In this document: piece by piece, positions 59,251-64,000 of the stretch
Layout of the letters: each line of letters starts with the position of its first letter
How positions within the stretch are numbered: position 1 is the first letter of the stretch
NCBI GenBank assembly: GCA_012646185.1
Contig: GCA_012646185.1_4706.1
Reading direction: 5' to 3' (one strand)
From: a phage
Length of the DNA: 64,000 nt
Program-made: the position numbers and the translations under genes
Notes under the pieces: model-generated
Told to the model about the DNA's origin: nothing
Database searches by the model: none
Seen by the model: only the letters and a program-made list of their open reading frames with translations

Positions 59251-61863
59251 TTAAGCGTCCGGCGTAAAATCAAAAGGAATGTCCGTACGAATGATATCGT
59301 AACGTTTTCCGAGGAAATAAAACTCTTCGGGAACCTGGCCTGGAATGATGCTATCACCGATGAACTGCGGATACGCCCAGATGTACTGAGTGAGTCCTTC
59401 GAACATATCCAGGTTATTTGCGTGGTTACCCATGATACGTTTCCAGAGTTCGCGTTTATACGGTGTTTTAACATCGAATCCATAAAGCGGTGCAAGATCT
59501 TCACCAGGAACAAATCCCAGGTAATAATGGATCTGACTAACCGGGAAACCAAGCGTATCTCGCGGAATGGTGATCGCTTGCTCAGCCTTGGTGACATGCG
59601 TCTCAATAATCCAGTCGTAGCACTCCGAATAGAACCGATCGAATTTCTCTGGATTATACCACGCTTTGGGAAGATTGAGTTTCTCCGTGAACGCATTCGA
59701 CATGATCGTCGGTAAGAACGGAAGAATACCGGTTTTGATCTGCGTGTATTTCGATTTTACCCGGTTAACCAAATTCCAGCAACTGTATCCTAACTGTTCG
59801 TTACAAAACTCAACGTAGAGATCGTAATCACCGCCAGATAATGGGTTGTTAATATCACCGATGTCTGCGGCGTATTTGTTGGGATATCGGTTATTGAAAG
59901 CCAGTTTGGTTTGGTAATCGTAGATACACGGTTTGTTGTTCGCTGTATTGATCCACCACCAGGGTTCACCTACTTGCACACAAATGTCCTGGACATGAGG
60001 GTAGATGATATCAGCAAACGCGGTTAACACATCCCCTAACCATGCCATCGCCTGTTGGTTACATGGAGACAACAACCAAGACGGTGGCGTATATCCGGTT
60101 GCTGCGATGTTTCCTTCCCAATCCTGCTGCGCCCACTCGAACGGACATGCTGTACTCATCAATTCGTAACTTAAACTGATGGTGACAGAGAAATGGTGTT
60201 TTGCGGCGTATGCAGCGAAAGCTTCATGCCACGCGATACAGGGTGGATTTAATACATCTGTGGTGTTCACCAGTAACTTACCCGCACTTGGCGTCCAGAC
60301 AGTATCGTAGAAATGCGACATTCCAACATAATGCACTAATTCATCTTGATACCCCGCATAAACCAGGTTCTCAAATACGCGCTCCGGCGTGATGTTGTAA
60401 TGGTCATCATAAGCGGTTATCGCACGAAGTTCGTGTGGCGTACAATGATGGCGATTAACCGTCATTTCCTGATACACCCCATCGATAGGAAGAATCTCGA
60501 TGGTTAAACCGAGGTCGATCGGTGTTTCCAGATAGGTCGTTTCAGTCGCATCTTCCTTATAATGTCGAGAACTCATGCTGAACATCAACGACGTTACCGA
60601 TTCGAGTTCGATAGGCTCGTCAGCATAGAACCCCGCCATTGCGTCATTGAAATCGATCGTTACGATTGCGCTTGTACCGTCTTCAGAGACGTCGGTCGCA
60701 TATCGGGTTAATGAGATATACTGACGGCTATCGTCTTTGTGTACGATGGTTAAAACCGGCGGGTTTTCGGTATCTGCAAAGTTACGCTGATCGCCAGTAA
60801 ACGTGATCTTCGCTTTAAAGATCAAACCGAATAACGACGTCATGGGATCATACGCAATACAACCGTGATCCAGCGTATCCGTTGTCCGCCATTCTATCCC
60901 GACCAACCCGTTAGCGGTATGGCATCGCATATACGCATTAAGTACCATGTCCTCACTGACAACCGCGAAGTTCTCTGTTGACTGACCGTTGATAATCCAA
61001 TACATCGGTTGCCAGAGGTTACGCGTACCTTTTGCGTAGCGGTAGGTTGGTGCGCCTTTGGGGTTGCCATTATTAAGATGGAATACGGCAGTACCTTGAT
61101 AATGGTCGTTCGTATTAATCGGGACACTGTAAGCATCACCGAGATCCGTACGTTCCACCTTCGCGACTGTTGCGTTTTCAAATAACCCACGCAGCGCGGG
61201 TAAACCGATATCTTCAGGTGCGTTTTCTCGACGAATCGCATCCGCGATGCGGTGGGCTAAGGCGGGGTAAATGGTCTCACCCTGTTGTAGGTTTGCAATA
61301 CCTACAAAGCGATCGGGAGCGATGTCAGCAATCAATAACTCAACATCACCCTTCGTTCTATCGTCATTAAGATATTTCAGTCCGGTAAGGTCAAGATGCT
61401 GAATAAGCGACAACAGGTTGTATTTACGGTTTTCAACAGTTAGTACAAGATCGCCTGCCCAAACCAAACTTCCCTCATCCGCTGTTACTTTAACGGATTG
61501 TCGGCCTGTGGTAGACGTTGTTGTCGTTTTATTTAATTGTCCTTGTAGGAAGTCGGTTGCGAGGTCAAAGGCGATACCGTAACGGTCAGCGACCGCTTGC
61601 ACGATTTCACGTAACTGGGTATCTTCTTCAATGATAATCTTGACAGGTATTCCCAAGAACGCTTTAGCGAGGTCTCGTTTAACCAACGAGACGAATACGG
61701 ATTTGTAGTATCGACTTCCATCTTTCCCTTTAAAAAGAATGGAAGTTGTTTCGGGTGCCGATAGAACACGTGCAAATACGACATCGTCGGAAGTAAGAGA
61801 AAGTCCGTTTTTCTCGTTGACCAATCTTAGTATTTCATTTTGCGCGGTTTCATGTAACTTCAT
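59251..61863 (-). CDS. large tail-module protein (870 aa); function unknown
   Basis: Long ORF with GAGG upstream; Trp-rich C-terminal half (GEPWWWINT); a tail role is inferred only from its position upstream of the fibre/Tfa genes. Confidence 0.75.
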   Translation of the reverse strand: MKLHETAQNEILRLVNEKNGLSLTSDDVVFARVLSAPETTSILFKGKDGSRYYKSVFVSLVKRDLAKAFLGIPVKIIIEEDTQLREIVQAVADRYGIAFDLATDFLQGQLNKTTTTSTTGRQSVKVTADEGSLVWAGDLVLTVENRKYNLLSLIQHLDLTGLKYLNDDRTKGDVELLIADIAPDRFVGIANLQQGETIYPALAHRIADAIRRENAPEDIGLPALRGLFENATVAKVERTDLGDAYSVPINTNDHYQGTAVFHLNNGNPKGAPTYRYAKGTRNLWQPMYWIINGQSTENFAVVSEDMVLNAYMRCHTANGLVGIEWRTTDTLDHGCIAYDPMTSLFGLIFKAKITFTGDQRNFADTENPPVLTIVHKDDSRQYISLTRYATDVSEDGTSAIVTIDFNDAMAGFYADEPIELESVTSLMFSMSSRHYKEDATETTYLETPIDLGLTIEILPIDGVYQEMTVNRHHCTPHELRAITAYDDHYNITPERVFENLVYAGYQDELVHYVGMSHFYDTVWTPSAGKLLVNTTDVLNPPCIAWHEAFAAYAAKHHFSVTISLSYELMSTACPFEWAQQDWEGNIAATGYTPPSWLLSPCNQQAMAWLGDVLTAFADIIYPHVQDICVQVGEPWWWINTANNKPCIYDYQTKLAFNNRYPNKYAADIGDINNPLSGGDYDLYVEFCNEQLGYSCWNLVNRVKSKYTQIKTGILPFLPTIMSNAFTEKLNLPKAWYNPEKFDRFYSECYDWIIETHVTKAEQAITIPRDTLGFPVSQIHYYLGFVPGEDLAPLYGFDVKTPYKRELWKRIMGNHANNLDMFEGLTQYIWAYPQFIGDSIIPGQVPEEFYFLGKRYDIIRTDIPFDFTPDA

Positions 61864-61885
61864 TAAAAACCTCAGCCCTTTAGAA

Positions 61886-62527
61886 TTAAATGTACTGCTT
61901 ACCGCCCACGAAGGAAGTTAACCAGTTCCTGCTGACGAGTTGTGATACCCAGCCTGGAACGGCTCTACCATTCTGGCTCATGATGTTACCACACCAACCA
62001 GGGAATCCGGGACGGATGTAATAGAAAGTTAAATTGTAGAGATGACAGTTCCATACCGCAACGTTATGTTTACCAGAAACCGCTTTAAAGACAAACGCGA
62101 CAGGTAACGGAGACGATAACAATTCAGTCACAGGGACGGCTGACCAGTTCGCATTCGCGTTCCATGGCTGCCAGGTGTGACTACGCGAGTCACCGTTAAC
62201 GTTACCGTTGCTACCGCGTCCGCCCGCGTTCCACCATAGCGACGGACTCATGTTCTTAAGTGAGGTAAATTGCTGTGGTGGAATATTCGGAATGATAACA
62301 GGGTTGGTACCTTGTCCGTGTTTCTTTTCTTTTGCGTTCACATAGCCGTTTATCGATTCGAGGTATTTGGTACCAGGATAATTGTTCTGGACTCGTGTCG
62401 CAATATCACGAACGTCGAACGTCCAGCAGATCATGGTGTTGTAGTAAGCGTCGGTGTTATCATGCCATGAGTTACCATCTTGTAAACGTGCGCCGCTATT
62501 CGGTGTTTTATCTGTACTTATAGCCAT
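61886..62527 (-). CDS. hypothetical protein (213 aa)
   Basis: ORF with AGGA upstream; Asn/Gly/Trp-rich. Confidence 0.65.
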   Translation of the reverse strand: MAISTDKTPNSGARLQDGNSWHDNTDAYYNTMICWTFDVRDIATRVQNNYPGTKYLESINGYVNAKEKKHGQGTNPVIIPNIPPQQFTSLKNMSPSLWWNAGGRGSNGNVNGDSRSHTWQPWNANANWSAVPVTELLSSPLPVAFVFKAVSGKHNVAVWNCHLYNLTFYYIRPGFPGWCGNIMSQNGRAVPGWVSQLVSRNWLTSFVGGKQYI

Positions 62528-62666
62528 GGTCTTGTCCTATACGTTGGTGGTTGAGGTGGCGGATATCGGATGCGTGCTGGACGTGAACCCTATAGTTCGC
62601 GCTATCGCCATTTTCTACCTCGTTTCTATTCTCAAAAAGGAAATTTCATACGATGACGCCATAGCA

Positions 62667-62696
62667 GCTCCTCCTTCCCTGACGGGTTGGAGGAGC
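62667..62696. terminator. hairpin of the conserved family in inverted orientation
   Basis: GCTCCTCC-TT-CCC-TGAC-GGG-TT-GGAGGAGC. Confidence 0.6.
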
Positions 62697-62704
62697 ATAC
62701 TTAA

Positions 62705-63211
62705 TTACTTACTGATAACCTCAACAGAGTTGGGATCAGCGATCAATGCACGGTCGGTAGAACAATTGAAGAAGACCATCCCAACACCATCGCCGTTCGA
62801 GTTCAGGGTTGAACTTGCGTAAGACAGGGTTGGTTTATTCATGCGGTAGAAGCGTTCGCTGGTAGTGGTATTGAACCCCAGATCAACGTAGTCTTTCACC
62901 GTGGTATACAACTGGGTGGACTCGAAAACGGTTACCGGAGAGTCAACGGTAAATTGACTACCTTCGTCCACAACCAGAACTTTATCGTTCCAGATTTCAG
63001 TGGTTGAGAACTTCGGTTTCCAATGTTCGAATTCCTGGGTTGCGCCCCAGCAAGAATAAACAGCGAGATTGCTGTTCTTCTCGACTGGTTTCAAACCCAC
63101 CAGTTGCGTCAGGTCTTTATCCAGGTTCGGTAAACCTTCCAGCGTAGCACACCCACCCAGAGAAAGCACCATCAGCATACCAAGAACGATCGCGCAAAGT
63201 TTCTTTGTCAT
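62705..63211 (-). CDS. predicted lipoprotein (168 aa)
   Basis: N-terminal signal peptide with lipobox MTKKLCAIVLGMLMVLSLGGC; sits beside the tail-fibre genes. Confidence 0.7.
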   Translation of the reverse strand: MTKKLCAIVLGMLMVLSLGGCATLEGLPNLDKDLTQLVGLKPVEKNSNLAVYSCWGATQEFEHWKPKFSTTEIWNDKVLVVDEGSQFTVDSPVTVFESTQLYTTVKDYVDLGFNTTTSERFYRMNKPTLSYASSTLNSNGDGVGMVFFNCSTDRALIADPNSVEVISK

Positions 63212-63252
63212 CGGATTTCCTCATGTGTTAACGGGAGTGATTTCCATAGTAA

Positions 63253-63669
63253 TTACACAGTTGTAGGAAATTCCGGCCAATCGATATTTGGTACAGCATC
63301 GGTATCGACAGCAGTCACCGCATCAATGTAATCCAAAACAGCATTAAGTCGGGTCGTTTCTTCCGGAGTCAGTTTTCGCCCAGCCCGTAATTTTAACTGA
63401 ATAAGATCGATGGAAGCCAGCGCAGAATCAATCAAAGATTGTTTTATCTGTTCTGCCTCGGCGACGAGATCTTCGTGTTGCCGCTCGGGTTCCGGAGGTG
63501 CGGTAAACTCACCATTTGAGTATGACCAACCTATTCCAGGTGACACAGCCTCCTTATCGTCGATATGAACCAACTGCTGATTGTCGAATATATCGAGCTC
63601 TGCTTCACCGTCGTAAACAATCGTGTTTACTACCACTCCATTTTCAATAACAGCGTATAATGTACTCAT
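63253..63669 (-). CDS. tfa: tail fibre assembly protein (Tfa-type chaperone)
   Basis: C-terminal pattern AEAEQIKQSLIDSALASIDLIQLKLRAGRKLTPEETTRLNAVLDYIDAVTAVDTDAVPNIDWPEFP matches the Tfa family; start placed at ATG 63667-63669 (GAGGAG 8 nt upstream), overlapping the fibre stop as TAATG. Confidence 0.75.
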   Translation of the reverse strand: MSTLYAVIENGVVVNTIVYDGEAELDIFDNQQLVHIDDKEAVSPGIGWSYSNGEFTAPPEPERQHEDLVAEAEQIKQSLIDSALASIDLIQLKLRAGRKLTPEETTRLNAVLDYIDAVTAVDTDAVPNIDWPEFPTTV

Positions 63670-64000
63670 TACATAAACTCCTCGATGATGCAAATCCCAT
63701 TAGCACCACGCCCACCAGGCTTAGCGGTTCCTGAGTAAGAGTTATCGTAAGCACCACCACCACCCGAACCAGGCGCGAGGCCGTTATGGGCGGTGCCAAC
63801 ACCAGCGCGACCGCCACCGCCCCAATATGATGCACCCCCACATCCACCGGCGGCAAGAGTACCGGCTTGTCCATCGCTACCGTCTCCACCCGGAATGCGT
63901 ATATCCCCGGTAGTAGGTGCGCCCCCATAGCCACCGCCAGTGTTTGTGACAGTTGTTTTTCCTGCGCCTTGCCCGCCGGGAGCAGTTAGCAGGGATGCAA
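63669..64000 (-). CDS. tail fibre protein, 3' end only (5' end beyond window)
   Basis: Frame not in the ORF track; translates to Gly-rich ...GGGYGGAPTTGDIRIPGGDGSDGQAGTLAAGGCGGASYWGGGGRAGVG...GICIIEEFM; stop at 63669..63671. Confidence 0.65.
   Translation of the reverse strand, partial: ASLLTAPGGQGAGKTTVTNTGGGYGGAPTTGDIRIPGGDGSDGQAGTLAAGGCGGASYWGGGGRAGVGTAHNGLAPGSGGGGAYDNSYSGTAKPGGRGANGICIIEEFM

Follow-up and report, generated by a model that had tools for sequence, protein, structure and literature searches.

Long tail fibres of the kind made by P1 (gpS/gpU), Mu (S/U) and the lambdoid phages (Stf/Tfa) have a common build, in which an N-terminal collar-fibre domain is followed by fibre repeats and a Gly-rich tip, and the fibre gene overlaps that of a Caudo_TAP chaperone whose N-terminal half varies and whose C-terminal half is conserved. 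The variable N-terminal domain of the chaperone binds the fibre, and the conserved C-terminal helical domain drives trimerisation (PMC9608196). Small lipoproteins encoded just downstream of receptor-binding genes are known from T5 (Llp) and from T1, phi80 and relatives (Cor), where they mediate exclusion via FhuA. Both are outer-membrane lipoproteins with an intramolecular cysteine pair, which in Llp is a disulfide joining Cys11 and Cys58 (PMC9586334). Phage lipoprotein genes are rare and usually mark the outer-membrane subunit (o-spanin) of a spanin pair (PMC6139136). Here we describe a locus at the end of a 64,000-nucleotide (nt) stretch of phage DNA (contig GCA_012646185.1_4706.1 of assembly GCA_012646185.1, hereafter the window), where the end of a tail-fibre gene, a Tfa chaperone gene and a lipoprotein gene follow each other on the minus strand (Table 1). 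The original prediction had placed these genes at 62705-64000, which is exact. Over positions 61800-64000 the window is 95.6% identical at the nucleotide level to the Escherichia coli jumbo phage vB_EcoM_Goslar, a nucleus-forming chimallivirus of 237 kb, and the final 9 kb of the window is 96.8% identical. The genes described here make up the distal end of the block of host-recognition genes in a Goslar-type nucleus-forming jumbo phage. The Goslar annotation lists gp90 as "tail fiber repeat protein, similar to gpS of P1", gp89 as "tail fiber assembly protein" and gp88 as "hypothetical protein"; the fibre and Tfa are an ordinary module already annotated there, and the lipoprotein is the item that deserves attention. 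We consider the identities of the parts (fibre tip, Tfa, lipoprotein and cassette behaviour) well supported and very probably correct.

The N-terminus of the lipoprotein reads MTKKLCAIVLGMLMVLSLGGC followed by ATLEG, a textbook succession of n-region, h-region and lipobox. In agreement with the original prediction of a lipobox-containing lipoprotein behind Tfa, all family members have the lipobox, with a cysteine that never varies among 26 homologues. Two other cysteines, C54 and C150, are invariant across the family as well. In E. coli, the residue that follows the lipid cysteine sets membrane sorting by the Lol system (the +2 rule). As this residue is A, S, K, V, T or Q in the family and never D, the lipoprotein should sort to the outer membrane. 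The start codon is off by one codon between the two phages, ATG ACA AAG in the window (MTK..., 63206..63211) and ACG ATG AAG in Goslar (MK..., 98424..98429), giving lengths of 168 and 167 residues, respectively. Between the window and Goslar, the synonymous divergence (dS) of the gene is 0.23 and the nonsynonymous divergence (dN) 0.009. The resulting dN/dS of 0.04 is the tightest constraint in the region, and judged from these rates the gene is under strong purifying selection.

Homology searches with tblastn recovered relatives at ~30% identity in 55 phage records, all from jumbo phages of ~240 kb that infect Salmonella (the SPN3US group), Erwinia, E. coli or Proteus. When 1.84 billion cluster representatives were searched exhaustively with a profile, only about ten true family members emerged. 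Among 5.8 billion proteins, a word-index search returned 26 members with a mixed profile, all on jumbo-sized contigs (~240 kb), and just the same six proteins with the Goslar-like alignment alone. The family to which the lipoprotein belongs is small and occurs only in jumbo phages of Enterobacterales. Its sole library match is PHROG 9559 (E 1.6e-21), a family of unknown function. No match to the lipoprotein was obtained in Pfam, NCBIfam or PADLOC, and no Pfam domain was detected in any of the 26 members, so that the "DUF2846" label on one Erwinia homologue is unsupported. The family is uncharacterised, the automatic UniProt label "Lipoprotein" on some Erwinia homologues being its only description. 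Phage transposon sequencing (Tn-seq) preprints contained nothing on the gp88 family, and in a receptor-screen preprint Goslar appears solely as the source of a phage.

An AlphaFold2 model based on the 26-sequence alignment (predicted local distance difference test, pLDDT, 82.8; predicted template modelling score, pTM, 0.77) replaced an earlier model from 7 sequences alone (pLDDT 35). It consists of a disordered tether of ~20-25 residues followed by an all-beta barrel. C54 and C150 are located in the first long strand and the last strand of the model, respectively, where a disulfide between them would close the barrel. Foldseek gave no match in the PDB at E ≤ 1e-3 and the PDB profile matches were all insignificant. 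A search of BFVD returned only the family itself ("Lipoprotein" of Erwinia phages) and weak barrel matches. Taken over all fold searches, generic small barrels were the only similarities, and T5 Llp and Cor were absent among both the sequence and the fold matches of the lipoprotein.

The fibre gene runs off the end of the window and is for this reason missing from the list of open reading frames (ORFs). The original prediction had nevertheless placed the Gly-rich 3' end of a tail-fibre gene there, and the translation of 63669..64000, a Gly-rich C-terminus of 109 residues ending in GICIIEEFM and a stop codon, matches PHROG tail-fibre families (E 1e-26). Against Pfam Gly_rich_2 (PF21722, cut-off 24.3 bits) the window fragment scores 18.5 bits, below the threshold because the domain is truncated, and full-length Goslar gp90 scores 45.7 bits. 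Goslar gp90 also contains Phage_tail_fib (PF12571, residues 1-141) and a Phage_fiber_2 repeat (PF03406); these collar-fibre and repeat domains are known from gp90, the same part of the gene lying beyond the window. A tblastn search of the tip against phages gave no match, the likely cause being the low-complexity filter acting on Gly-rich sequence, and the tip was instead compared via PHROG, Pfam and blastn. These comparisons identify the fibre as a P1-S-like long tail fibre with a Gly-rich domain at its tip. GC content revealed no foreign island, the Gly codons of the tip being the one exception.

The fibre and Tfa genes overlap by TAATG, as originally predicted, and the overlap of stop and start implies translational coupling. 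Profile searches, named beforehand as the test of the Tfa assignment, agree with it; the ORF matches Pfam Caudo_TAP (PF02413) with 71.9 bits (cut-off 22.1, E 7e-20) and the PHROG tail-fibre-assembly families 188/3792/105 (E 1e-24). Tfa residues 62-135 are ~70% identical in protein and ~80% in DNA to the corresponding parts of HK97, HK106, SfIV, the P2-like pro483 and Klebsiella prophages. At the DNA level, tfa of lambdoid, P2-like and SfIV-type phages is ~80% identical to the 3' half of the gene. Residues 1-61 are near-unique: among the tblastn matches listed, a 44%-identical prophage is the one record other than Goslar in which part of this stretch aligns. From this distribution, the N-terminal half of Tfa appears to match its own tip and the C-terminal half to be a widely shared trimerisation domain. 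With a dN/dS of 0.35 against Goslar, the highest in the region, tfa is also the least constrained gene. In the Goslar virion, ~52 copies of Tfa gp089 and ~43 copies of the fibre gp090 were reported (Table S4, doi 10.64898/2026.04.21.720040). This ratio of roughly 1:1 suggests continued binding of the chaperone to the mature fibre, and its presence in virion preparations differs from the P1, Mu and lambdoid modules.

The tip and chaperone behave as a unit. Together, tfa and the tip (748 nt) are ~68% identical over 95% of their length to fibre/tfa genes of P1-like phage-plasmids, 90-100 kb in size, from E. coli. Of 5,426 E. coli genomes, more than 2,700 contain a match. For comparison we used metagenomic Goslar-like relatives, designated L005-L008. 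The fibre of L007 shares the shaft repeats and an N-terminus 70% identical to that of gp90 (residues 1-183); its tip differs and is without Gly_rich_2, and the chaperone slot is occupied by an unrelated DUF4376 protein. L008 has shaft repeats ~80% identical to those of gp90, followed by ~310 unrelated final residues and no chaperone gene, and L005 and L006 are without such a fibre altogether. The tip and chaperone are thus a cassette swapped in and out by recombination, as the original prediction had proposed for the fibre C-terminus and its chaperone. Unlike in P1 and Mu, the module here resides in a 237-kb lytic nucleus-forming phage and is accompanied by no invertible S'/U' segment or invertase. 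Within the tip, the window and Goslar differ by 2 synonymous changes in 110 codons (dS 0.022), compared with dS values of 0.12-0.23 in neighbouring genes, and this approximately ten-fold reduction suggests a recent homogenising exchange. The recombination tract looks as if it ends near the fibre/tfa junction (63669..63998 versus 63253..63669).

Relative to the window, the lipoprotein is 87% identical in L007, 75% in L008 and 49% in L005 and L006. Because it is kept at these levels where the tip and chaperone are replaced or absent, the lipoprotein gene is not part of the cassette. Its constant neighbours in Goslar-like, SPN3US-like and Erwinia phages are DUF7941 genes and not fibre or tfa genes. 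Directly upstream of it, the window has tfa; L005 and L006 have a gp92 homologue or a DUF7941 gene at this place, and in SPN3US and the Erwinia phage Kwan the gene there lies on the opposite strand. In the phages with ~30%-identical homologues, the gene has the endolysin region on one side and small DUF7941-like genes or putative fibre genes on the other, and in many cases no neighbour shares its strand.

The abundance of gp88 is known from a 2026 preprint on the Goslar virion, in which it belongs to ten unmodelled proteins of unknown function with more than 200 copies per virion (doi 10.64898/2026.04.21.720040). In virions purified by polyethylene glycol and caesium chloride and analyzed by label-free quantification mass spectrometry, gp88 was assigned 78% coverage, 20 peptides and 737 copies (range 491-1158; Table S4, doi 10.64898/2026.04.21.720040). 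We confirmed its identity by the peptides ALIADPNSVEVISK, DYVDLGFNTATSER and DLTQLVGLKPVEK. The preprint is silent on the lipobox (doi 10.64898/2026.04.21.720040). The coverage amounts to 130 of 167 residues, which corresponds to residues 32-167 minus FYR and MNK (other arithmetic solutions exist), and takes in nothing from the signal peptide or the cysteine-bearing N-terminal peptide. No free C(+57)ATLEGLPNLDK peptide was present among the matches listed. This pattern is compatible with processing and acylation of gp88. Host OmpA is represented in this sample by peptides with a combined area of at least 1.2e6 units, compared with 1.45e6 for gp88 in total, and according to the authors nucleus fragments and PhuZ filaments contaminate the preparation (doi 10.64898/2026.04.21.720040). 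gp88 is accordingly an abundant product, its amount in the particulate fraction of the lysate being comparable in order of magnitude to that of OmpA. The virion mass spectrometry tables of SPN3US do not list the orthologue of gp88 (gp159 in the original numbering), but they do list its neighbour gp160, which is small and DUF7941-like, as a virion protein of high abundance. Since OmpA co-purifies similarly and the SPN3US orthologue is missing, outer-membrane debris is the likelier source of the gp88 signal. In addition, a protein with a Sec signal peptide and lipobox could not join particles assembled in the cytoplasm.

Outer-membrane lipoproteins of phages with Gram-negative hosts also occur as the o-subunit of two-component spanins, such as lambda Rz1 and phiKZ gp141.1. 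In phiKZ the genes for the inner-membrane i-spanin (gp141) and the o-spanin (gp141.1) form an overlapping cassette, the o-spanin gene invariably coming next after the i-spanin gene (PMC12894885). We scanned the Goslar genome (MK327938) in all frames, with the window standing in for the segment at 36-88 kb. gp88 was the only credible lipoprotein in any frame, also when the pattern was relaxed, and no i-spanin/o-spanin pair or single-protein u-spanin candidate was detectable. About 12 kb upstream of gp88, on the same strand, Goslar has a cluster of envelope-directed genes that comprises gp98, a SleB-type endolysin with a cleavable signal peptide, gp100 and gp101 with multiple transmembrane segments, the secreted gp103 and gp104, and the single-pass gp94, for which the charge distribution implies an N-out/C-in topology. 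gp94 resembles the "class IIIb" holin of phiKZ and is followed by the DUF7941 gene gp93, mirroring phiKZ gp142-gp143. phiKZ gp143 has been read in two different ways, as a holin-binding lysis regulator (PMC12894885) and as a DUF7941 'fibre-cloud' protein (doi 10.64898/2026.04.21.720040). As i-spanin partners for the lipoprotein, gp94 was rejected on its topology and lack of a coiled coil, and gp182 on finding no lipoprotein ORF embedded in or adjacent to it in any frame. None of seven genomic contexts contained an i-spanin gene beside the lipoprotein gene. The single hydrophobic segment of the lipoprotein is N-terminal and its C-terminus, ALIADPNSVEVISK, holds no transmembrane segment, which rejects a unimolecular spanin of the T1 gp11 type. 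A canonical o-spanin was likewise rejected; unlike Rz1 and gp141.1, which are short Pro-rich segments, the lipoprotein has no adjacent or overlapping i-spanin and is a globular, compact beta-barrel with 4% Pro.

In SPN3US, ACQ60_gp062 is a type II membrane protein with an ectodomain that is first helical and then Pro-rich. Nine nt downstream starts ACQ60_gp061, a lipoprotein of 159 residues unrelated to the gp88 family. The two (NC_027402, 180017..180976) look like an unannotated, separated two-component spanin pair, which would make the gp88 family an extra lipoprotein in SPN3US. Tiny ORFs of 37 and 44 residues with a C-terminal hydrophobic segment are found between the endolysin and a 'tail assembly chaperone' in the Erwinia phages Kwan (L003 10221..10334, -) and ChrisDB (L004 6195..6329, +), respectively, and may encode lysis membrane proteins.

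Our best guess at the function of the lipoprotein, made with low confidence (a probability of about 0.35-0.4), is exclusion at the level of the cell envelope. The protein would be exported and lipidated and would build up in the outer membrane of the host late in infection, to about the level of OmpA, and this accumulation would be the reason for its appearance in 'virion' preparations. On the periplasmic side of the outer membrane, it would bind a conserved envelope component of Enterobacterales and thereby render infected cells and debris non-receptive to further phage adsorption or entry. The net effect would be exclusion and progeny protection like that of Llp, Cor and TraT, not tied to the specificity of the neighbouring tip. 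TraT of the F plasmid and Bor of lambda are abundant outer-membrane lipoproteins of mobile elements that alter the cell surface (surface exclusion, serum resistance); they belong to temperate or plasmid elements, which express them while being carried by the host and not at a late lytic stage. Neither showed homology to the lipoprotein in Pfam or NCBIfam scans. Several points weigh against an exclusion function. The lipobox calls come from pattern matching and not from LipoP or experiment, and the abundance figures derive from one preprint and one sample with a partial OmpA sum. The lipoprotein has no similarity to Llp or Cor and is much larger than known superinfection exclusion lipoproteins, its family persists in phages that differ in receptor-binding proteins and hosts, and Goslar, being without another recognisable lipoprotein or spanin pair, leaves room for a role in lysis. 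The original prediction proposed a more specific form of exclusion, in which the lipoprotein blocks the receptor of the adjacent fibre tip in the manner of T5 Llp. It was suggested by an outer-membrane lipoprotein gene directly downstream of the receptor-binding module of a strictly lytic phage, comparable to llp after pb5, and protection of progeny from debris is plausible here too (PMC9586334); the two conserved cysteines add an intramolecular pair as in Llp. The claim is nevertheless unsupported and now very improbable. The lipoprotein does not co-vary with the receptor-binding tip: relatives with a replaced tip and chaperone still encode it at 75-87% identity, and those without the fibre at 49%. 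Its homologues extend to phages of other genera (Salmonella, Erwinia, Proteus), and it has no likeness in sequence or fold to Llp or Cor. With 147 residues, the mature form is more than twice the size of these proteins (about 60-80 residues; ~60 for Llp). Of the original prediction, the Tfa and module claims therefore stand and the receptor-blocking claim does not. A periplasmic inhibitor of peptidoglycan hydrolases, acting like MliC/PliC or T4 Sp and either shielding the cell from the tail lysozymes of superinfecting phages or restraining the secreted endolysin of the phage itself, we regard as scarcely probable.

It is unlikely, though less so, that the lipoprotein is a lysis accessory or non-canonical disruptor of the outer membrane, perhaps with a non-adjacent inner-membrane partner, which in Goslar-type phages replaces the missing Rz1-type o-spanin. 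Such a role would suit the only credible lipoprotein gene of a phage in which no spanin pair was detectable, the more so as phage lipoprotein genes are rare and mostly spanin markers (PMC6139136). The gene is also downstream of, and on the same strand as, the gp98/gp100/gp101/gp94 envelope genes, and in SPN3US-like and Erwinia phages it is 2-5 genes from the endolysin. These positions must be set against the lack of an upstream or overlapping i-spanin gene, of the C-terminal transmembrane segment of a u-spanin and of the unstructured, Pro-rich form of an o-spanin, as well as against the classic-looking gp062/gp061 pair that SPN3US has in addition. Lower in our estimate stands gp88 as a genuine high-copy virion component, bound after lysis, for example, to the DUF7941 fibre cloud or the peripheral baseplate. 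At ~740 copies (range 490-1160) it is among the most abundant unmodelled proteins, and its gene is placed among virion fibre genes. However, its signal peptide is incompatible with incorporation during cytoplasmic assembly, it is not in the cryo-electron microscopy model, the preparation contains nucleus fragments, PhuZ filaments and OmpA at comparable intensity, and the SPN3US counterpart is missing from tables in which gp160 is abundant. That the ~740 copies are real and represent an exported, lipid-anchored protein picked up by the fibre cloud or the baseplate at or after lysis we consider very unlikely. The probability left after these readings goes to a function not assigned here, and exclusion at the envelope remains our preferred reading.

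Table 1. Features of the fibre tip, Tfa and lipoprotein locus and its downstream neighbours (window coordinates)
Feature	Coordinates	Strand	Remarks
Long tail-fibre gene, 3' end (last 109 codons and stop)	63669..64000	-	Orthologue of Goslar gp90 (1324 aa); Gly-rich tip domain; gene cut by window edge
TAATG overlap	63667..63671	-	Fibre stop TAA 63669-63671; Tfa ATG 63667-63669
Tfa chaperone (Caudo_TAP), 138 aa	63253..63669	-	Orthologue of Goslar gp89; codons 1-61 = 63487..63669
Spacer, 41 nt	63212..63252	-	GAGGA ribosome-binding site 6 nt upstream of lipoprotein ATG
Lipoprotein ORF, 168 aa	62705..63211	-	Orthologue of Goslar gp88
Lipoprotein signal peptide, residues 1-20	63152..63211	-	KK in n-region, hydrophobic core, lipobox L-G-G-C
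Lipid Cys21 codon	63149..63151	-	Pattern match
Mature lipoprotein, 147 aa and stop	62705..63151	-	Tether, then all-beta barrel (predicted); Cys54, Cys150; PHROG 9559
Stem-loop	62663..62701	-	Begins 4 nt past lipoprotein stop codon
Conserved motif GCTATGGCGTCATCGTATGAAATTTCCTTTT	62635..62665	-	Directly after hairpin
Orphan protein, 213 aa	61886..62527	-	Downstream neighbour; orthologue of Goslar gp87
DUF7941 and TIM-barrel protein, 870 aa	59251..61863	-	Downstream neighbour; orthologue of Goslar gp86

The stem-loop behind the lipoprotein gene has a minimum free energy of -26.9 kcal/mol (z -4.8). Equivalent hairpins with other stem sequences follow the gene in L005, L006, L007 and L008, so that the structure and not the sequence is kept, and the lipoprotein gene probably ends its transcription unit at the hairpin. 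Goslar carries no annotated terminator at this position. The intergenic region 62528..62704 (177 nt) is 99.4% identical to Goslar, compared with ~95% for the flanking genes, and includes a 30-nt motif, GCTATGGCGTCATCGTATGAAATTTCCTTTT, which contains two TATG and is common to the window, L007 and L008. This motif is a candidate promoter or leader of the next gene. A scan for sigma-70 promoters and terminators performed no better than on shuffled sequences, as expected for a phage that uses its own RNA polymerases.

The 213-residue gp87 orthologue downstream has no match in Pfam, PHROG or NCBIfam. It is 37% identical in L007, against 87% for the adjacent lipoprotein, which indicates fast evolution between lineages, and with ~19 copies per Goslar virion it may be a fast-evolving host-recognition component. 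The 870-residue gp86 orthologue combines an N-terminal DUF7941 module with the N-terminal and TIM-barrel domains of the Pfam 'non-contractile tail sheath protein' (E 3e-85; PF25613, PF23844 and PF23845 in all). It is a putative host-recognition 'fibre-cloud' protein (doi 10.64898/2026.04.21.720040) and probably a receptor-binding protein that binds or cleaves glycans.

The lipoprotein described here is the only one encoded by a model E. coli nucleus-forming phage. Recognising gp88 as an exported outer-membrane lipoprotein changes how the list of abundant 'virion-associated' proteins is read, with OmpA pointing to debris as its source. Should gp88 be a virion protein after all, it would be a lipidated component of a tailed-phage virion and might aid membrane engagement in adsorption or the formation of the early-infection vesicle. 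A role in lysis would mean a new way of disrupting the outer membrane in a phage without recognisable spanins. If the lipoprotein acts in exclusion, as we tentatively propose, its family would be a new family of envelope-level exclusion proteins.

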